Assembly: GCA_964498755.1 (NCBI GenBank)
Contig: CAZCIB010000005.1
Location: forward strand, 4,560-68,559
Direction of reading: 5' to 3'
DNA length: 64,000 bases
From: an uncultured Pseudobdellovibrionaceae bacterium
GTDB taxonomy: Bacteria > Pseudomonadota > Alphaproteobacteria > Micavibrionales > Micavibrionaceae
The notes under the pieces are model-generated. The model was not told the origin of the DNA, did not search any database, and worked only from the letters and a program-made list of their open reading frames with translations. Position numbers and translations under genes: made by a program. Below, in pieces: positions 3,870-50,647 of the stretch (its first letter is position 1; every line of letters starts with the position of its first letter).

Positions 3870-3945
3870 GTCATTCCGGCGAAAGCCGGAATCTATAGGA
3901 CATCTAATTGATTCACTATGGATCCCGGCTTTCGCCGGGATGACG
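3870..3945. repeat. REPIN-like inverted doublet of GTCATTCCGGC-GAAA-GCCGGAATC hairpins (family A)
   Basis: GTCATTCCGGCGAAAGCCGGAATC at 3870-3893 faces GGATCCCGGCTTTCGCCGGGATGAC at 3920-3944. It lies just upstream of the dapF RBS. Confidence 0.85.
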
Positions 3946-3970
3946 TGTCAGGAGAAGAGCTGGAGGAGTA

Positions 3971-4921
3971 ATGAAATTCACAAAAATGCACGGGCTGTCG
4001 AACGATTTTATAATTGTCGATACGCGCTATAAGGGCGAGTTGCCGCCGAGGGAAACCATCGCCGCGCTCACGCACCGCAAGACCGGGATCGGCTGCGATC
4101 AGTTTATTCCCGTGTCCGCACCCAAAGACGACCGCGCGGATTGTTTTATGCGTATCCTGAACGCGCCGGATGCCTCTGAAGCCGAAGCCTGCGGTAATGC
4201 AACACGCTGCGTGGCCTCGATGCTGATGCGGGAAAAAGACACGGACCGCGTTATTATACAAACCGTCGCGGGGCTTTTGGAATGCCGCGCAAGGAACGCC
4301 GATAAAACGCTCATAGAGGTTGATATGGGCGTTCCCCGCCTGGAATGGAGCGAGTTTCCGTTAAGCGAGGCGTGCGATACGCTCTGGCTGCCGATTGATC
4401 TGGGGGATTTTGTCGCCGCCGGTCCCTCGCCCACTGCGCTAACGCTTTCACCTGGCAGTGAAAGCGAAGCTCCGTTGCCCTCTCCCACGGGGAGAGGGAG
4501 GGGCCCGGCGAAGCCCGAAGGGCGAAGACGGGAAGGTGAGGGGAGTCCCGCCGCCGTGAATATCGGCAACCCCCATTGCGTGTTCTTTGTCGACGATGCG
4601 CAGACATTTCCCGTCCGTGAAATCGGCCCGCAAATCGAACACCACCCGCTCTTCCCGCAAAAAACCAATGTGGAGTTCGCAACCGTAATCGACCGCGCCC
4701 ATATCCGCATGCGCGTCTGGGAGCGCGACACCGGCGAAACAGAGGCTTGTGGAAGCGCAGCTTGCGGCACGATGGCCGCCGCCGTCCGGCGCGGGCTCGT
4801 GGATCGGGAATGCGAGGTCATGCTCAATGGCGGCCCGCTGCAGTTTCACTGGCGCGAGGAAGACGGACATCTTCTGATGACCGGCCCGGTGGAATATGTG
4901 TTTTCAGGAGAAACTTCATAA
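3971..4921 (+). CDS. dapF: Diaminopimelate epimerase DapF carrying an in-frame ~41-codon repeat-derived insert
   Basis: MKFTKMHGLSNDFIIVD, CGNATRC and NIGNPHCVFFVDD...ACGSAACG are DapF signatures. It is 316 aa; the insert accounts for about 41 extra codons. Confidence 0.93.
   Translation: MKFTKMHGLSNDFIIVDTRYKGELPPRETIAALTHRKTGIGCDQFIPVSAPKDDRADCFMRILNAPDASEAEACGNATRCVASMLMREKDTDRVIIQTVAGLLECRARNADKTLIEVDMGVPRLEWSEFPLSEACDTLWLPIDLGDFVAAGPSPTALTLSPGSESEAPLPSPTGRGRGPAKPEGRRREGEGSPAAVNIGNPHCVFFVDDAQTFPVREIGPQIEHHPLFPQKTNVEFATVIDRAHIRMRVWERDTGETEACGSAACGTMAAAVRRGLVDRECEVMLNGGPLQFHWREEDGHLLMTGPVEYVFSGETS
4423..4545 (+). mobile_element. Family B nested palindromic element inserted in frame within dapF
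   Basis: TCCCTCGCCC...GCTAACGCTTTCAcctggcaGTGAAAGCGAAGCTCCGTTGCCCTCTCCCacggGGAGAGGGAGGGGCC...GGTGAGGGGA. It has the same core as 5856-6007 and 22216-22319. Translates as PSPTALTLSPGSESEAPLPSPTGRGRGPAKPEGRRREGEGS. Confidence 0.85.
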
Positions 4922-4993: not shown

Positions 4994-5308
4994 TCAATGC
5001 TGCGTGATCTGGGGTGCCGTGAGGGCATCCGCCGTAAAGGCGGGATTAAACGGCGCGTGGGCCATGGAGTCCTCCTCGTCTACGCCGCGTATATCAACGG
5101 CCTCGAAATCGCCAAAGCGTTTACGCGCCTCTTCCTTGATCACGTCAAGAAACTCGAGCACTTCGGCGAGCCGCGCGTCCCGGCAGGCCTCGCCGATGCC
5201 GGGCATGGCAAGATCGGTCTGAACGACAAGCGTCTTGACGGGCTTGAATCGTCCGCTGCCGACTTCTATGACATATAATTGTTTGATGCTGGGATGGTCG
5301 AAAGTCAT
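4994..5308 (-). CDS. Hypothetical protein (104 aa)
   Basis: The ORF has a strong SD (GAAGGAG, 8 nt before the ATG on the minus strand at 5309-5322). I recognise no family. Confidence 0.55.
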   Translation of the reverse strand: MTFDHPSIKQLYVIEVGSGRFKPVKTLVVQTDLAMPGIGEACRDARLAEVLEFLDVIKEEARKRFGDFEAVDIRGVDEEDSMAHAPFNPAFTADALTAPQITQH

Positions 5309-5498
5309 GAGAGGTGCTCCTTCACTGTTCTTTTAATCGATTAAATAAATTGTCTTGGCTTCTAATGTTTAAGATAGGTCTGAAATGGGATATTTTCAGG
5401 GCAGTTTTGTTACAGATTTGTAAGCATTAGAAAATGATCACATGAAGAAAACAGGGTAACAGGTTGACGTTTCGCCGGTATCGGGATATGTGTGCGCT

Positions 5499-6950
5499 AT
5501 GACAAACATAAAAAAATACGAACAAAGTTGCGAGCCTGAAAAACAGGGGCCGGAAATTGTCACGTTTGGCTGCCGCCTCAACATCTACGAGTCGGAGGTT
5601 ATGCGTGCGCACGCGCAGAATTCAGGGCTTGACGACGTTGTCATTTTCAATACCTGCGCCGTTACGAAAGAAGCCGAACGGCAGGCGCGGCAGGCCATTC
5701 GCAAGGCCCGGCGCGATCACCCGGAACGGAAAATTATCGTGACCGGCTGCGCGGCCCAGATCGATCCCGACGGCTTTGCGGGCATGAACGAGGTTGATTT
5801 TGTTGTAGGCAATGATTTGAAGTTGAAAGAAGAAGTATGGCAGGGCCTTGAGCGTCCCTCACCCTGTCCCTCACCCACTTTGCTAACGCTTTCATCTGAT
5901 GATGAAAGCGAAGCTCCGTTGCCCTCTCCCTTAAGGGAGAGGGAGGGGCCCGGCGAAGCATCGCGAAGCCGGGAGGGTGAGGGATCTGGTGAGGGACAGG
6001 GTGAGGGGCAAAACCGCCATGCGAAAATCCTCGTCAACGACATCATGTCCGTCCGTGAAACGGCCTCTCACCTGATCGAGGGGATGGAGGGCAGGGCGCG
6101 GGCATTTCTGCAGGTCCAGAACGGCTGCGATCACCGTTGCACCTTCTGCATTATCCCGTACGGGCGCGGCAATTCGCGCTCGGTTCCGATCGGGGAGATC
6201 GTTAAACAGGTCCGCGCTCTTGTTGAAAGCGGATATAAGGAAATCGTTTTCACGGGCGTTGACGTAACCTCTTACGGCCCGGATCTGCCCGGCGCGCCTA
6301 CGCTCGGGCAGATGATCCGGCGCGTTCTGGCGCTTGTGCCGGAACTGCCGCGCCTTCGTCTTTCCTCGCTCGACCCGGTGGAGATTGACGACGATCTCTG
6401 GCGGCTCATTGAAAATGAGCCGCGCCTGATGCCGCATCTCCATCTCTCGCTTCAGGCCGGGGACGATATGATCCTCAAGCGCATGAAGCGCAGACATCTG
6501 CGTCAGGACGTCATCGACATGTGCGAGCGGGCGCGCAGCTACCGCCCGGACATCGCCTTTGGCGCGGATATTATCGCGGGCTTTCCGACCGAGACCGAAG
6601 AGATGTTCCGCCGCTCTCTCGATATCGTCGAGGAATGCGCGCTCAGTTATCTGCATGTTTTCCCCTATTCGCCGCGCCCCGGCACGCCAGCCGCCAAAAT
6701 GCCGCAGGTTCCCGGCAATGTGCGTAAAGAGCGCGCCGCGAGACTGCGCGAGGCCGGGCGTGTTCAGCTTGAAAAGAACACGAGGGCGTATGTGGGACGG
6801 CGCGTCCAGGTCATCGTGGAAAAAGACGGTCAGGGGCGCACGGAGCATTTCGCCCAGGTTCAGCTTGATCAAAGCTTCGGGCAGGGTGCGCTTCTGGCGG
6901 CGGAAACAGTGGCCGCAGAAGGCGGGGTTCTGCTGGCGCAGTCGTTATAG
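5499..6950 (+). CDS. mtaB: tRNA methylthiotransferase MtaB (MiaB-like radical SAM) carrying an in-frame ~51-codon repeat-derived insert
   Basis: N-terminal MTTase domain (VTFGCRLNIYESE), radical-SAM CDHRCTFCIIPYGRG, and a TRAM-like C-terminus. dapF-mtaB-ftsY synteny. ATG at 5499; the ORF opens at GTG 5490. Confidence 0.88.
   Translation: MTNIKKYEQSCEPEKQGPEIVTFGCRLNIYESEVMRAHAQNSGLDDVVIFNTCAVTKEAERQARQAIRKARRDHPERKIIVTGCAAQIDPDGFAGMNEVDFVVGNDLKLKEEVWQGLERPSPCPSPTLLTLSSDDESEAPLPSPLREREGPGEASRSREGEGSGEGQGEGQNRHAKILVNDIMSVRETASHLIEGMEGRARAFLQVQNGCDHRCTFCIIPYGRGNSRSVPIGEIVKQVRALVESGYKEIVFTGVDVTSYGPDLPGAPTLGQMIRRVLALVPELPRLRLSSLDPVEIDDDLWRLIENEPRLMPHLHLSLQAGDDMILKRMKRRHLRQDVIDMCERARSYRPDIAFGADIIAGFPTETEEMFRRSLDIVEECALSYLHVFPYSPRPGTPAAKMPQVPGNVRKERAARLREAGRVQLEKNTRAYVGRRVQVIVEKDGQGRTEHFAQVQLDQSFGQGALLAAETVAAEGGVLLAQSL
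5856..6007 (+). mobile_element. Family B nested palindromic element inserted in frame within mtaB
   Basis: Perfect 20-bp terminal inverted repeat: CCCTCACCCTGTCCCTCACC (5856-5875) against GGTGAGGGACAGGGTGAGGG (5988-6007). Internal hairpins are GCTTTCAtctgatgaTGAAAGC and CCCTCTCCCttaaGGGAGAGGG. Confidence 0.9.
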
Positions 6951-21769: not shown

Positions 21770-22074
21770 ACTTCTCTCTTTTCGGTTTGTGTGGTTGATA
21801 TCAAGTCTACCGCTTTTACTCTTTCGGGACGACATCGGCCTGCGCGCTCTGTTATCAACAAGCGAACGGATTGGCGCCTCCCTCCATCTGATATCCGGCT
21901 TATTTCTGGCGGCTGTTCAAAGCGTATGTCTCCCTGTCTTCCGGTTCTCTTCGGGAGCAAAATATCGCCGCATTTCAATGCCGGTAACTCAAGATGTGAG
22001 AACGAACATAGCGCAGAATTCGTAAAAATTCAAGTTCTTATTTCGGAAATATGAAATTGGGTGTGAATATCAGA

Positions 22075-22208
22075 TGCGAGTTGTGAGTTGCGAGTTGTGA
22101 GTTGTGAGTAGCGAGTAGCGAGTAGCGAGTAGCGAGTAGCGAGTAGCGAGTAGCGAGTAGCGAGTTGTGAGTGGTGAGAAGCGAGTAGTGAGTTGTGAGT
22201 TGTGAGTG
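22075..22208. repeat. Heptanucleotide microsatellite (~19 units of GAGTTGT / GAGTAGC) forming the expanded left arm of a family C element
   Basis: Read directly: gcgagtt gtgagtt gcgagtt gtgagtt gtgagta (gcgagta)x6 gcgagtt gtgagtg ... The short complementary arm CAACTCCCAACTCACAACTCACAACTAC is at 22320-22347. Confidence 0.9.
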
Positions 22209-22215
22209 GACAGAA

Positions 22216-22319
22216 CCCCTCACCCACTTCGCTACCGTTTTCCCGTAGAAAAACGAAGCTCCGTTGCCCTCTCCCTAGGGAGAGGGAGGGCCCCATGCGT
22301 AGCATGGGAGGGCGAGGGG
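22216..22319. repeat. Family B nested palindromic element, intergenic copy
   Basis: CCCCTCACCCACTTCGCTACCGTTTTCccgtaGAAAAACGAAGCTCCGTTGCCCTCTCCCtaGGGAGAGGGAGGGCCCCATGCgtaGCATGGGAGGGCGAGGGG. Confidence 0.85.
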
Positions 22320-22343
22320 CAACTCCCAACTCACAACTCACAA

Positions 22344-25244
22344 CTACCCCGTAAACCCGACATGATGCGTGATCGCGGAAGAGACATCCTGAATCATGCG
22401 GTGCATTTTCACGAGCGGGTCGAAAATCCGCGTCTGTTCCTCGGCGTAGATTTCCTTTTCCTCGGCGCTGTAATCGGAGGCTTCGCCGTAATCGGCGGAC
22501 GCGCTCTCATCCGGATGGACCGGAAAAATTTCGCGTAAAAGAATATCGGCCGCCGGGATGTTCAGCTTGTAGACCTGTTTTAAAAGCTGGTTGCGCGAGA
22601 CGTCATGTTGCGGCGAATAATAAGGAATTTCCGTCGCCAGCAGGTAAATCTCCTGGATCAGGCAAAGCCGGACCGCGTGCAGGCAGGCCAGCGCCGTGTG
22701 TTCTTCTTCATTGCAAACGCCGGCGTCCGACTCAAAGCGCTTGAGAATGCTCATATCCGCGTAAATCTTGCGGAAAACGTGCTGGATGTCGACGGAGGGG
22801 CTGATGTGTTCCAGGATTTTGGCGACGCTGCCGCAGCGGCGCGCGTTAACGGGATCGCCGGCGTGCGATTCCCGGATCAGCCAGAACATCGGGTCGAGCG
22901 TATCAATATAGGCTTTCATCACGTCAGCCTGCGATTTGCAAGCCCCGAAGAGCGCGAGCCGCATCAGGGAGCGGAAGCGCGGCGAGTTTTCCTTCATAAA
23001 GCTGTAGAAGGCCGGGTCCGTGCGGACGGCGCTGCCAAGGCCTGAGAACGTATTCACCAGAACGCCCATCTGCGCGAGAACGGCGTTGTGCGGGATGGCC
23101 CGGTATTCGCGCGCCATTGGCGCCTTGTTCTCCGTTTTGGAATAATCGTATTGCCGTTTGGCGGCGCGGCTGCCTGTACCGCGCATGAGGTTCATGCCGA
23201 ACGCGGAGAGCAGGGAGCCGTATTGGGGGCTTTGCATCAGCTCGTCCTGAAACTCCTTGATAATGGTCAGGAATTCGGTAATGCCGGCGCGGTCCTCGTA
23301 ATAGGGATCGCCGGGTTTTTCCTGCGTTTCTTCTGTCCAGTAGCCCAGTATGCGCGTCAGCGCCGCCAGAGACGTTTCCTTTGACATGAAGTAAAGATAC
23401 CCGTCGCCGCCCTGGAAACTGCTTTCCTGGATATAGGGCATATTGCTCTCTTTCAGTTCGGCCAGGAAATGCGGCGGCGTCAGATATTCCATACGCGCGC
23501 GCATGCTCTCGGGATGGCCGCCGCGCCCTGAAGATTCCCCGTGCGTGTCAAAGCACAGCATGGCCGTATCATCCAGCTCGTATTTCACCATCAGTCTGGC
23601 GATACGCTCTTTTAAACGTTCAATAGAGCCCGACGCGGGCGTCTGCCCGATATAGCGGCCTGCGTCAGAGTAACCGGTTTGCAGGCACAGGCGTCCGCGC
23701 GCGCGGGCGTAACTGCGAAATTCAGGAACTTCCAGAAGATGATCGACGATCCGGCTCGCGCGCTTCAGGGCGCGTTCCGTTTCAAAGAGAGGGCAGATAT
23801 CGACGTGGTTTTCAATTCCGAAACGCCGCGCGTAATAAAGCGCGGACATCACCGTGAATGAACTTTCCGTTTCCGCGATCAGAAAGCGGACCGGCGTGTG
23901 GTTGTCAACATGCTGTATGATTTGCTGCATCAGCATGAACAGGCGGATCGCCGAGGCTTCTTCTTCAAGAATATTGCCAAAATGGATATTGCAGGGGCCG
24001 GCCTGGCGGAACTTGCTTAACAGCTTGTCCATATAGGTCTGGCGGAAGCGCGGGTCGGCGGGATGCGTGGTTAATTCGACATATTTGCGGATGGCGTTAT
24101 GGACCTGCGCGGCGTTGATCCTGAAATGGACATGCGCGCGGGATAAGCCGAAGTTTTCCAGCTGCGAGAGCAGTACCAGCAATTCAGTTTTGTCTTCTTC
24201 GTTTTTCGTCTTCTTGACGGCCTTCTCAATAACGTTGATGAGGGGGCCGGGACCAAGCATGCGCGCGTCCCGGCTTGCCATAAGCTCGCGCGAGGCGCGC
24301 TGTAACTTGGGGTGCCCCGGTTCGCGCTCGCCGTCATAAGCGGAAAAGAATTTGTGATGCTCGCGCAAGGGGCGCAGGCTGTTGTCCAGCAGATTCAGCG
24401 CTGGCGCCAGAGCGCTGTCCAGCGTTTCGGACTTTGCGCATAGCAGGGCCAGTTTATTGCGGTAGTATTCCGTCTGCTGGATTTGCAAATCGAGTTTCGC
24501 CGCGAATGTCGCCGTCCAGTTGATATCATTGCGGCCATCGAGGTCGAAGCCGACCCATGTCGCGATCGTGCAGAGCTTCGGGCGGATTTCCGTCCATCTG
24601 TCCGGATAGAGCTCCTGCGCGACGATGAACGCCGTTCTGTAGAGCGTTTCAACGCTGTCATGCAGGTTACCGATGGCCTCGTGCGAGAATTCTTCCTCAT
24701 CGCGCAGGGTCGGCGGCTCGAAATTTATTGCGGCGCTTTTGATCAGGTTGCTAGCGGCTTCGTCTTTTTCGTTCCCGGGCGCGGCGGCGTAATGCGCCAA
24801 TGCGCGGTTAAGCTCGCGAGTCATGCCGAATGTCGGATGCGCCGTAAACACGAAGCCGTAAAAGACCTGTGACAGCGCGGACTGAAACGTTTCAAAATCC
24901 CGTTTTGCGCCGTCATCGAATGCAAGGTTTTCAATGATATCGGATAGAGCCCCGGTATTTTTGCGCGCGTCCGTATCTCCAAGATAGCGGGCCAGCTTCT
25001 CGCCGCGCTTGATCAGGCCGTCTTGCGCCAGCTCTTCGGTTATCCGTTGCAGGTCATCCGTCGAGAGCTGTCCGCTGCGCAACTGGTCGTTCAAGTAAAG
25101 CGACAGGCGCAGGACCGGCGAAATAAAAGGATTGAGTTCCCGCCGCGCAAAATACTCGGCGTATTGCGTCTTGATTCCGTCGAGCAGGGCGGGCGCGGGT
25201 TCAGGGGATTGTTGTTTTATGGGCGTGACGCGTTCTTCGGACAT
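22344..25244 (-). CDS. ppc: Phosphoenolpyruvate carboxylase, divergent form
   Basis: 966 aa. FVFTAHPTF (compare VLTAHPTE), GFDLDGRND (compare GxDRDGNP), GYSDAGRYIG (compare GYSDSxKDAG), THGESSGRGGHP (compare FHGRGGxxGRGGxP), YRAIPHN (compare LRAIPW), and a C-terminal ...FTG. Confidence 0.7.
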   Translation of the reverse strand: MSEERVTPIKQQSPEPAPALLDGIKTQYAEYFARRELNPFISPVLRLSLYLNDQLRSGQLSTDDLQRITEELAQDGLIKRGEKLARYLGDTDARKNTGALSDIIENLAFDDGAKRDFETFQSALSQVFYGFVFTAHPTFGMTRELNRALAHYAAAPGNEKDEAASNLIKSAAINFEPPTLRDEEEFSHEAIGNLHDSVETLYRTAFIVAQELYPDRWTEIRPKLCTIATWVGFDLDGRNDINWTATFAAKLDLQIQQTEYYRNKLALLCAKSETLDSALAPALNLLDNSLRPLREHHKFFSAYDGEREPGHPKLQRASRELMASRDARMLGPGPLINVIEKAVKKTKNEEDKTELLVLLSQLENFGLSRAHVHFRINAAQVHNAIRKYVELTTHPADPRFRQTYMDKLLSKFRQAGPCNIHFGNILEEEASAIRLFMLMQQIIQHVDNHTPVRFLIAETESSFTVMSALYYARRFGIENHVDICPLFETERALKRASRIVDHLLEVPEFRSYARARGRLCLQTGYSDAGRYIGQTPASGSIERLKERIARLMVKYELDDTAMLCFDTHGESSGRGGHPESMRARMEYLTPPHFLAELKESNMPYIQESSFQGGDGYLYFMSKETSLAALTRILGYWTEETQEKPGDPYYEDRAGITEFLTIIKEFQDELMQSPQYGSLLSAFGMNLMRGTGSRAAKRQYDYSKTENKAPMAREYRAIPHNAVLAQMGVLVNTFSGLGSAVRTDPAFYSFMKENSPRFRSLMRLALFGACKSQADVMKAYIDTLDPMFWLIRESHAGDPVNARRCGSVAKILEHISPSVDIQHVFRKIYADMSILKRFESDAGVCNEEEHTALACLHAVRLCLIQEIYLLATEIPYYSPQHDVSRNQLLKQVYKLNIPAADILLREIFPVHPDESASADYGEASDYSAEEKEIYAEEQTRIFDPLVKMHRMIQDVSSAITHHVGFTG

Positions 25245-30652: not shown

Positions 30653-30719
30653 GTCGCCTCTGCGAAAGCGGAGGCCCAAAGTTACAGAATTTTGGATCCC
30701 CGCCTTCGCGGGGATGACA
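30653..30719. repeat. Family A hairpin doublet
   Basis: GTCGCCTCTGCGAAAGCGGAGGCCC ... GGATCCCCGCCTTCGCGGGGATGAC. Confidence 0.75.
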
Positions 30720-30741
30720 TGGAACCCAAAGGGGGCAGGGG

Positions 30742-31495: not shown

Positions 31496-32902
31496 TTATT
31501 CATCCATCACCCAGCTTTCCGGATCGGCCTGAACTTGTTCGCCGGTTTCCATGTTTTTGACCTCGTGCGATCCGTCCGCGTCGAATGGCGGGAACCAGAC
31601 GTGAGCAATGCCCTTGCGCTCGGCGTAGGCGAGTTGCTTTTTAATTTTCTGCGGGGCGTGGTAGAGCTCGACGTTATAGCCGCGCGTTCTTAATGTCCGG
31701 GCCGCCTGCGCCGCCGCGCTACGCTGTTCCTCGTTCGGCAGGACCATGAGGATATGCGCGGGGCTTGTCGCCTTGACCGGTAGTTTACCCTGCTGTCTAA
31801 GGCGGTCGAACAGGCGCGAAAAGCCGATGGAAATGCCGACGCCCGGCAGATGCTTGTTAATATACCCGCCTGCGAGATCGTCATAGCGCCCGCCGGAACA
31901 GATCGAGCCGTAACCGGGATCGTCCGTAAACACCGTCTCGTACACCGTGCCCGTGTAATAATCCAGCCCGCGGACGATAGAGAGATCGGCCACGACCGCG
32001 CCTTCGGGGAGGTGGAAGAGTTGATCGAGGACGAAGGAGAGTTCTTCGATGCCCTCGTCGAACAATGCCGTCACCCCGGCGGAAGCCGGGGTCCATTCTG
32101 AGCCTGTATTTGAACCTGCCGATGGATTCCGGCTTTCGCCGGAATGACGCTTCAGTAAGTCTTGCGCCAATACTTTTAAATGCTTGGATTTAGTTACTTT
32201 AGTCGCCGTAAGCTCCCTGATAGCGCGAAGATTTACCGTGTTGACGCCTAAATCCACCAATTGGCTTTCAGCTTCTTGCTGGCCAATTTTCTCAATTTTA
32301 TCGACAATGCGGGTAACTTCGGCGACGTTTTCGATTCCGAGTATTTCACACAGGCCAACCAATATCTTCCTGTTACTCACCCGTATCTGTATCTTCTCAT
32401 TCTCCATGCCGGGCAGGGAACTCAGAACCTCCCAGATAATCGCAGGCATTTCCGCGTCGAAATGCAGCGGCAGGTGATCGACGTTGATCACGTCGATATC
32501 GCACTGCATGAATTCGCGGAAGCGTCCGGCCTGCGGCCTTTCGCCGCGCCAGACGCGCTGCATCTGGTAGCGTTTGAACGGGAAGATCAGCTCGTTGAAA
32601 TGCTGCGCCGTATAGCGGGCGAGCGGCACGGTCTGGTCGAAATGGAGCGCGAGCCGGGCTTCCTTGTCGCCTTCTTCCTTGTGCAGGCGCTCGATGACGT
32701 AGATTTCCTTGTCGGCGTCGCCGCCCTTGGCCTCGATGACCGCAAGCTCCTCGACGCTTGGCGTTTCGATGGAGCAAAACCCGTAACTTTCAAAGACGCG
32801 GCGGATATGGTCCAGCCATTGCTGCTCGACCAGCCGCACTTCGGGGAGCCATTCGGGAAAGCCGCTAACGGGCCGGGGCTTGTAAATTTTCTTTTCGCTC
32901 AT
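31496..32902 (-). CDS. hisS: Histidine--tRNA ligase carrying an in-frame family A repeat insert
   Basis: Class II aaRS motifs (GFPEWLP..., YQMQRVWRGERPQAGRFREFMQCD, GGRYDDL) and an anticodon-binding C-terminal domain. ATG at 32902 (MSEKKIY). Confidence 0.9.
   Translation of the reverse strand: MSEKKIYKPRPVSGFPEWLPEVRLVEQQWLDHIRRVFESYGFCSIETPSVEELAVIEAKGGDADKEIYVIERLHKEEGDKEARLALHFDQTVPLARYTAQHFNELIFPFKRYQMQRVWRGERPQAGRFREFMQCDIDVINVDHLPLHFDAEMPAIIWEVLSSLPGMENEKIQIRVSNRKILVGLCEILGIENVAEVTRIVDKIEKIGQQEAESQLVDLGVNTVNLRAIRELTATKVTKSKHLKVLAQDLLKRHSGESRNPSAGSNTGSEWTPASAGVTALFDEGIEELSFVLDQLFHLPEGAVVADLSIVRGLDYYTGTVYETVFTDDPGYGSICSGGRYDDLAGGYINKHLPGVGISIGFSRLFDRLRQQGKLPVKATSPAHILMVLPNEEQRSAAAQAARTLRTRGYNVELYHAPQKIKKQLAYAERKGIAHVWFPPFDADGSHEVKNMETGEQVQADPESWVMDE
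32070..32148. mobile_element. Family A (REPIN-like) hairpin doublet inside hisS, in frame
   Basis: GTCACCCCGGCGGAAGCCGGGGTCC (32070-32094) ... GGATTCCGGCTTTCGCCGGAATGAC (32124-32148). Translated on the minus strand as ...HSGESRNPSAGSNTGSEWTPASAGVT... Confidence 0.85.
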
Positions 32903-46261: not shown

Positions 46262-46335
46262 GGCACAAAATCCTGTATATGGTATTAATGGGATATTATA
46301 CCATAAAAGATGAATTTTGCCACAAGGTTCAAAAG

Positions 46336-46496
46336 CCTCTCCCTTCAGGGAGAGGCAACGAGGCTTACCGTTTTCGAAGAAAACGTTAGCCGCAGTGGTG
46401 AGGGACAAGGCAATGGCGATATCCCTCACTCGCTCAGCTATAGCTTTGCCTTCGCCAAAGCGAAGCTTCGCTGCCCTCTCCCTGAAGGGAGAGGGA
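46336..46496. repeat. Two family B half-elements arranged head-to-head (a ~160-bp palindrome)
   Basis: 46336-46405 is the reverse orientation of the CCCTCAC...GCTAACG-hairpin-...CCTCTCCC-GGGAGAGG module. 46422-46496 is the same module in forward orientation. Confidence 0.8.
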
Positions 46497-46540: not shown

Positions 46541-49297
<2,757 letters not shown>

Positions 49298-49473
49298 GTG
49301 TTCTTTTCTGTCCTTATTTATATAGCCTGATATAAAGCTCTGCGGAAACGCCGTCAATCAAAGCCTTGTTTAAACATTCCCGGCGCTCTGGAAATCTTTA
49401 TTCTTAGGCCTTGCGCTTTTATGTGATCTCAGGCATGAATCACGCTTTAGGGATTCAAACGGAGTATCAAGGA

Positions 49474-50561: not shown

Positions 50562-50626
50562 GCATCCCGATGGATGCCGGGATCCAGCCGAATAAAAAGC
50601 TCTGGATCGCGGCTTTCGCCGGGATG
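50562..50626. repeat. Family A hairpins
   Basis: GCATCCCGATGGATGCCGGGATCC ... GGATCGCGGCTTTCGCCGGGATG. Confidence 0.7.
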
Positions 50627-50647
50627 TTTTTTTATTGAGCTCCTTTT

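Follow-up and report, generated by a model that had tools for sequence, protein, structure and literature searches.

In a 64,000-nucleotide (nt) stretch of DNA from an uncultured Pseudobdellovibrionaceae bacterium (contig CAZCIB010000005.1; the whole stretch is called the window below), the diaminopimelate epimerase gene dapF reads in frame through a palindromic repeat that also occurs in the tRNA methylthiotransferase gene mtaB and between genes. Taken together, our analyses make it probable that this element is a non-autonomous palindromic DNA repeat of ~100–125 bp, similar to repetitive extragenic palindromic (REP) sequences and MITEs (miniature transposable elements with inverted repeats), and that a still functional dapF tolerates this selfish repeat in the form of a translated and disordered loop. 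The phenomenon of in-frame insertion is already known from the Rickettsia palindromic elements (RPEs); here it is shown by a different, unrelated-looking repeat family that is present in many environmental Alphaproteobacteria.

An in-frame repeat in dapF

The dapF open reading frame (ORF; 3971..4921, plus strand) encodes 316 amino acids (aa), matches the Pfam family DAP_epimerase (PF01678; E 8e-56) and matches solved DapF structures. A reading of the DNA that preceded this work (the sequence-only reading) had reported that dapF runs through a repeat element with its frame intact, which the ORF and the Pfam match bear out. The insert peptide PSPTALTLSPGSESEAPLPSPTGRGRGPAKPEGRRREGEGS lies, exactly as quoted there, between ...LGDFVAAG and PAAVNIGNPHCVFFVDD (PAAVNIGNPHC...) in the ORF translation. 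The element had been placed at 4423–4545; this location stands, but the boundaries do not, as the inverted-repeat ends define a full-length sense copy of 128 bp at 4422..4549 (plus strand), recognized by its similarity to other copies and by its DNA fold. An 8-bp direct repeat, CGCCGCCG, which is a possible target-site duplication, brackets the copy on the left (4414..4421) and on the right (4549..4556). With 135 bp (45 codons) from one repeat to the other, dapF is longer than its homologues by a net ~45 codons rather than 41.

Alignment with orthologues, which the sequence-only reading had named as a check, agreed with an insertion. We selected 22 homologues from the best 120, namely the closest and the unusually long ones, with 51–74% identity to the window DapF; 18 of them, including the closest (56–74%), have the loop without an insert. 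The usual length of DapF homologues is 268–281 aa, and a phmmer search against solved structures split the window protein into residues 2–134 and 194–314, leaving ~59 of its residues opposite ~20 in the crystal-structure sequence. All aligned sequences share the GNPH motif and both catalytic cysteines (C74 and C260). The AlphaFold2 model of the window DapF (mean predicted local distance difference test score, pLDDT, 86.7; predicted template-modelling score 0.83) falls below a pLDDT of 50 only at residues 153–185, within the insert, and Foldseek superposed it on solved DapF structures, with a target-normalised TM-score of 0.90 to PDB 9mro_A. The DapF fold is thus kept in the model, and the insert seems to leave the hairpin turn ahead of the GNPH strand as a disordered loop of low confidence, in line with its earlier placement in a loop before the GNPHC strand.

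As its DNA matches a repeat that is also found between genes, we read the dapF segment, by sequence comparison, as an insertion and not as an old loop. Three more distant DapFs (P0107, P0116 and L008) also carry element-derived segments at or near this site: an antisense half copy in L008, an antisense right half in P0116 and, in P0107, a related subfamily of ambiguous orientation. Homologous segments in other lineages were what the sequence-only reading would have taken as a sign of an ancestral loop. Such segments do occur, but their sequences identify them as other copies or subfamilies of the repeat, not as a conserved ancestral loop. An in-situ inversion between P0107 and P0116, which are 80% identical and share their insert boundaries, was considered and not established, since only P0116 is clearly antisense. 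The L008 protein (383–1195; metagenome-assembled genome (MAG) AC1.162, JAWKVT010000001.1) is a DapF of normal length (270 aa), in which the antisense half copy PPLPLGEGNEASLPQEVIDAVGEG stands where ~26 native residues (RLEW...HLPL) would be expected, so that some of the original protein sequence has apparently given way to the repeat.

Copies of the repeat in the window

The sequence-only reading had located the same core at two intergenic loci and inside mtaB. This is confirmed by the 21-nt core GAAGCTCCGTTGCCCTCTCCC, which is found exactly at 4466, 5910 and 22255, whereas the occurrence at 46462 has two mismatches: four matches against 0.02 expected, a number reached in 0 of 100 shuffles. 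The central hairpin, searched for as CCTCTCCC-N2-7-GGGAGAGG, occurs five times in the window (0.00 expected).

The second host gene, mtaB (5490..6950, plus strand; 486 aa; Pfam UPF0004 and Radical_SAM), carries a full-length sense copy in frame in its inter-domain linker (5856..6007, plus strand), which is 87% identical to the dapF copy over 94 nt in a local BLAST comparison. The canonical element spans ~5868–5983 and is enclosed by an additional perfect 20-bp outer inverted repeat (5856–5875 / 5988–6007): 12 nt gained on the left (CCCTCACCCTGT) are the exact complement of the right arm and complete a perfect 20-bp outer stem. This copy has a diverged orthologous counterpart in an ocean-survey record (AACY023832030; L019).

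Between genes, a full-length copy of 103–104 nt (22216..22319, plus strand) has stops in both coding frames and lies directly 3' of the stop codon of a 966-aa ORF (22344..25244, minus strand). It is bracketed by tandem 7-nt units (GCGAGTA / TGTGAGT) and their reverse complement at 22062–22207 and 22320–22345, and these arrays extend the palindrome far past the element. Two left-half copies stand head to head near 46 kb, a degenerate one at 46335..46404 (minus strand) and another at 46423..46496 (plus strand), the latter just 3' of the stop of a 938-aa ORF (46541..49357, minus strand). No site at the 46-kb copies passed a terminator scan.

Architecture and fold of the element

An alignment of nine full-length copies, drawn from MAGs as well as the window, yielded the consensus CCCTCACCC-ACTnCGCTAACG-[hairpin 1]-CGAAGCTCCGTTG-CCCTCTCCC-loop-GGGAGAGGG-AGGGGCCCG-[hairpin 3]-(C)GGGAGGGTGAGGGG. 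All full copies end in a terminal inverted repeat of 9–10 bp (CCCCTCACCC / GGGTGAGGGG). As a single strand of either RNA or DNA, the element is predicted to fold into an outer stem that closes three hairpins, forming a four-way junction; the DNA fold of the dapF copy has a free energy of -33.9 kcal/mol (z = -2.9). On the plus strand of this copy, folding (for the 5' arm also the consensus fold) places the arms of the outer stem at 4424..4431 (CCCTCGCC) and 4535..4542 (GGTGAGGG), which pair with each other. Hairpin 1 (CGCTTTCAC ... GTGAAAGCG) occupies 4443..4466, the central hairpin CCCTCTCCC-ACG-GGGAGAGGG, which is invariant in all copies, 4478..4498, and hairpin 3, with a conserved base (CCCG/CGGG) and a variable tip, 4504..4532. 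Hairpin bases and unpaired stretches, among them ACTGCGCTAACG and CGAAGCTCCGTTG, are almost invariant, and the tips of hairpins 1 and 3 vary among copies.

The stem of hairpin 1 changes in sequence with its pairing kept. It is formed in 19 of 20 copies with ~10 distinct stem sequences. When pairs were anchored by position in 21 distinct hairpin-1 segments, 93% were standard, compared to 66% after the 3' arms had been swapped among copies, and none of 5000 shuffles scored as high. Three stem positions of the L019 orthologue of the mtaB copy differ on both arms in a compensatory manner. Such maintenance could reflect selection for a structure that copying requires or, alternatively, template-directed repair in DNA quasi-palindromes. 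A hammerhead-like motif (CUGAUGA...GAAA) in hairpin 1 of the mtaB copy is absent from other copies and was dismissed as chance.

Reading frames of genic and intergenic copies

The conserved GCTAACG and GGTGAGGG place stops in two sense frames and one antisense frame. In genic copies two frames are always open, PSPT.LT...EAPLPSP...GEG in the sense direction and PSPS...GEGNEAS...SAVGEG in the antisense direction; some copies have another open antisense frame as well. All genic copies (13 of 13) use one of the two always-open frames. By comparison, a stop interrupts one or other of the two coding frames in five of seven intergenic copies, the length of hairpin 1 shifts the frame in five of seven, and each of the seven shows at least one of these defects. 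How long the central loop is determines the frame in which the right arm is read, GRGRGP in dapF and REREGP in mtaB, and no specific peptide is conserved among genic copies. Because openness and net length are kept and the peptide is not, the pattern points to a filter by translation and not to a selected peptide.

Distribution in other genomes

The exact core was found in 13 stretches from ~9 species-level alphaproteobacterial MAGs, labelled Rhodospirillales, Alphaproteobacteria or uncultured Rickettsiales, and in eight metagenome contigs; viral contigs gave no match to it. Core matches in L009, L023 and L025 were discarded as chance hits, as their flanks showed no similarity. DNA searches alone yielded ~18 real copies, of which 11 are in-frame insertions, in either orientation, in conserved housekeeping genes. 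The in-frame copies are located between the two domains of NadE, in TrmD (two genomes), in the linkers of an E2 acyltransferase and of a lipoyl-E1-beta protein, at a fused E1 alpha/beta junction, in a loop of dihydrofolate reductase, in DapF, in MtaB (two genomes) and, as a C-terminal tail, in a DUF559 protein. The inserts in MAGs either separate Pfam domains or interrupt a single domain at one of its loops. A profile of the element peptide, searched against a collection of 5.8 billion proteins, returned two marginal matches only, perhaps owing to composition-bias filtering.

An element copy stands directly between rimM and a DUF559 gene, whose product is endonuclease-like, in three MAGs (L003, 2366–2850; L027, 10222–11067; L028, 1–600). 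In L027 and L028, the called gene joins DUF559, element and RimM in one ORF; in L003, the element forms the DUF559 C-terminal tail. In an uncultured Rickettsiales MAG, intergenic left-half copies (L004, 3260; L006, 1164, minus strand; L012, 5460) have an upstream CCTTGGAGAGGGAA-N(2-8)-ATG that abuts CCCTCACCC. It resembles a ribosome-binding site with a start codon; in this MAG it belongs to a repeat unit of greater length.

Inserts recur in the linker of MtaB. A PSP...GEG-type insert of 21–67 residues is present in 13 of the 121 closest MtaB sequences, in the same linker, which measures 6–8 residues in 90 of 104 measurable sequences. The L010 copy occupies the MtaB linker too, but is oriented opposite to the window copy. 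On a neighbour-joining tree built with the linker excluded, the carriers occupy at least 11 separate positions; for 11 of the 13, the nearest neighbour (78–91% identity) lacks an insert, and the inserts come from several element subfamilies. These observations point to a permissive site that was colonized repeatedly, although numerous losses are an alternative. The empty MtaB linker of L026 (~6340–6390) reads tggGGAGAGGGGgct (W-G-E-G) and includes the central hairpin arm GGGAGAGGG, which could be a trace left by a copy since lost, a target that the element prefers, or a coincidence.

Searching the dapF copy against plasmids gave partial matches only, which led to a right-half module composed of the central hairpin, AGGGGCCCG, hairpin 3 and GGGAGGGTGAGGGG. 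This module is a high-copy repeat of cultured Azospirillum, present at at least 330 places in 43 Azospirillum replicons of PLSDB, almost none of them overlapping an annotated feature; inverted doublets with a spacer of ~40 nt are frequent. One doublet (L033; Azospirillum sp. B510 plasmid pAB510b, NC_013856.1, 437977–438634) lies in frame in the annotated urea carboxylase gene uca (WP_012976900.1), whose predicted product includes PSPVPGEGGAHAQAWEGEG. The REP-like behaviour of the right half in Azospirillum, which also recalls REPINs (doublets of REP sequences), suggests that the full element is a composite of REP-type units.

Proposed origin and alternative explanations

Copies are scattered through the genomes of one group of Alphaproteobacteria, and we propose that a copy in an essential gene would persist only if it falls in a stop-free frame, adds a whole number of codons and occupies a loop or inter-domain linker. 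The pattern of surviving genic copies is observed, and its cause is what we infer. The dapF copy would be transcribed and translated into a disordered stretch of 41–45 residues, rich in Pro, Ser, Gly, Glu and Arg, before the GNPH strand of an enzyme that presumably still works.

Several points weigh against this proposal. The CGCCGCCG duplication was seen only at dapF, where it may be chance in GCC-rich coding DNA; by eye, we found none at the other eight of nine full copies. The filled and empty MtaB proteins P0126 and P0226 (91% identity) yielded no readable junction, as the linker is too diverged. A tblastn search with Escherichia coli RayT, a REP-associated tyrosine transposase (RAYT), found no match in the window and the other loci (283 kb), in which a RAYT on a main chromosome or a far-diverged one would escape; there was also no Azospirillum match among the 32 plasmid records that did match. 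Finally, the unpaired stretches are near-identical across distant genomes, which is unusual for a decaying selfish repeat and could point to a function outside those discussed here.

One rival view is that the element benefits the host, through an RNA structure governing how stable the mRNA is or how fast it is translated, or through recruitment as a flexible linker peptide. Besides the near-invariant unpaired stretches, the reuse of the same linkers, the half copy in place of a native segment in L008, the joined DUF559-RimM of L027 and L028 and the position of both intergenic window copies just after stop codons would fit such a module. Against it stand its patchy presence, with nearest neighbours usually lacking the insert, a peptide that varies with orientation and with loop length through the frame of the right arm, so that no peptide sequence is conserved, the predicted disorder of the insert, and the lack of a terminator-like site at the 46-kb locus; we consider a beneficial role improbable. 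Removal of the element before or during protein synthesis, as an intron-like RNA, as an intein or by translational bypassing, which would leave mature DapF without the segment, is less credible still. GC-rich 'byp' elements of a yeast mitochondrion are an example of such bypassing, and both the very stable structure and the compensatory changes in the hairpins would fit removal. Rfam, however, gave no match at the gathering score in the whole window; near the two genic copies, relaxing the threshold to E 10 brought up noise only and nothing resembling an intron. Judged by splice-junction residues and a size of at least ~130 aa, an intein is contradicted by a segment of 41–45 aa that is far too small, begins with Pro, ends with Ser-Pro and has no Cys/Ser...His-Asn junctions. 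In addition, genic copies in both orientations are stop-free and keep the frame and intergenic copies do not, a difference that translation would select and removal need not.

We give very little credence to an ancestral, lineage-specific DapF loop that merely resembles intergenic sequences. The extra Pro/Ser/Gly-rich residues at or near the site in P0107, P0116 and L008 would be expected of such a loop, but the closest homologues lack the segment, its DNA matches the mtaB copy and the intergenic copies, and the inserts of P0116 and L008 run in the opposite orientation with that of P0107 belonging to another subfamily. Equally hard to sustain is an assembly artefact that collapsed a repeat into dapF. 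Misassembly is a classic problem at repeats, and the window probably comes from a MAG, but dapF and its insert are identical in a Logan assembly of run SRR7048223 that was built separately and also has the start of the mtaB copy, and the frame is exact on both sides. The Logan assembly may share reads with the source genome. This second assembly and the diverged orthologous mtaB copy, which comes from an unrelated ocean-survey record, make a simple artefact unlikely, and in-frame copies occur in many genomes.

A broader version of the selfish-repeat proposal, which we advance tentatively and consider rather doubtful as a whole, is that a long-lived REPIN-like family of Rhodospirillales-type Alphaproteobacteria has been a recurrent source of loop and linker peptides, entering the same permissive sites of housekeeping enzymes in either orientation. 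Under this broader version, the MtaB linker could have been entered independently at least ~10 times and one DapF loop at least three times, and the repeat could sometimes replace native segments (L008 DapF) or join genes (DUF559-RimM). The choice of sites might be guided by short homology to GGGAGAGGG / GGTGAGGG, considering that the empty L026 MtaB linker reads GGGGAGAGGGGG.

Relation to known repeats

In-frame insertion by an unrelated-looking element, as in Rickettsia, had been put forward in the sequence-only reading, and the likeness holds at the level of the phenomenon: both are multi-copy palindromes of 100–150 bp, inserted in frame in housekeeping genes at fold-compatible sites of alphaproteobacterial hosts. 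Protein-coding palindromic repeats of Wolbachia were reportedly described by Ogata, Suhre and Claverie in 2005; these, too, are in-frame palindromic repeats and a second reported case, in an alphaproteobacterium outside Rickettsia, but of A+T-rich intracellular hosts. In a later summary, RPEs are repeats of ~150 bp, about half of whose 44 insertions in R. conorii are in frame at fold-compatible sites of unrelated genes (PMC10969869, citing Ogata et al. 2000, 2002). The share of genic copies, about half in that summary, is ~58% for the unbiased copies of the present family. Unlike RPEs, this family is G+C-rich and looks unrelated in base composition and motifs, so that our impression is that homology to RPE-1 to RPE-10 is unlikely. 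It also differs in its four-way junction with two variable hairpins, its coding capacity in both orientations, its frequent half copies, and its occurrence in many environmental lineages instead of one intracellular genus, with the same linker apparently colonized independently many times.

REP and REPIN sequences are short palindromes, extragenic by definition, that are mobilized by RAYTs (PMC3116915, PMC3337134). The present family resembles them in its high-copy, short, imperfect palindromes that are mostly intergenic in Azospirillum, in its inverted doublets (also at the 46-kb locus), in its persistence across related lineages and in the maintenance of its hairpins. In contrast, its copies often lie within genes, where they would be translated (dapF, mtaB and 11 of ~18 MAG copies), no conserved GTAG-type head is evident and no RAYT was found near the copies searched. 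With MITEs such as Correia, ERIC, Nezha and Chunjie (PMC10969869) it shares small size, lack of transposase coding capacity, terminal inverted repeats, a stable fold and occasional in-frame fusions; it differs from them in the apparent lack of a consistent target-site duplication and in a conservation that reaches internal unpaired stretches and not the ends only. A literature search of incomplete coverage found no published account of the element family, and searching for motif strings gave unrelated papers only.

Since the same linkers appear to have been hit independently many times, the family offers a natural data set on sites that tolerate 25–65 extra residues, and on repeats as seeds of new loops, linkers and gene fusions. 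Translation and tolerance are testable at the bench because the urea carboxylase copy resides in cultured Azospirillum sp. B510; in the uncultured host, a translated dapF insert would give peptides such as AAGPSPTALTLSPGSESEAPLPSPTGR. For annotation, low-complexity 'PSP...GEG' stretches in MAG proteins should be read as repeat insertions and not as domain features.

Other features of the window

A 104-aa ORF between dapF and mtaB (4994–5308, minus strand) has a counterpart of 101 aa at the same position in the alphaproteobacterial contig L017; neither this ORF nor the 104-aa ORF as called in L001 has a Pfam match on record. At 1022–1213, a repeat with a 15-nt period and 10 copies in register is probably Ala/Glu-rich low-complexity coding sequence on the minus strand. 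A second, unrelated palindromic family (TGGATCCCGGCTTTCGCCGGGATGACG, reading WIPAFAGMT in one frame) occurs at 1841–1874, 3872–3951, 30692–30725, 32122–32155 and 50602–50635, with one inverted pair just upstream of the dapF start.

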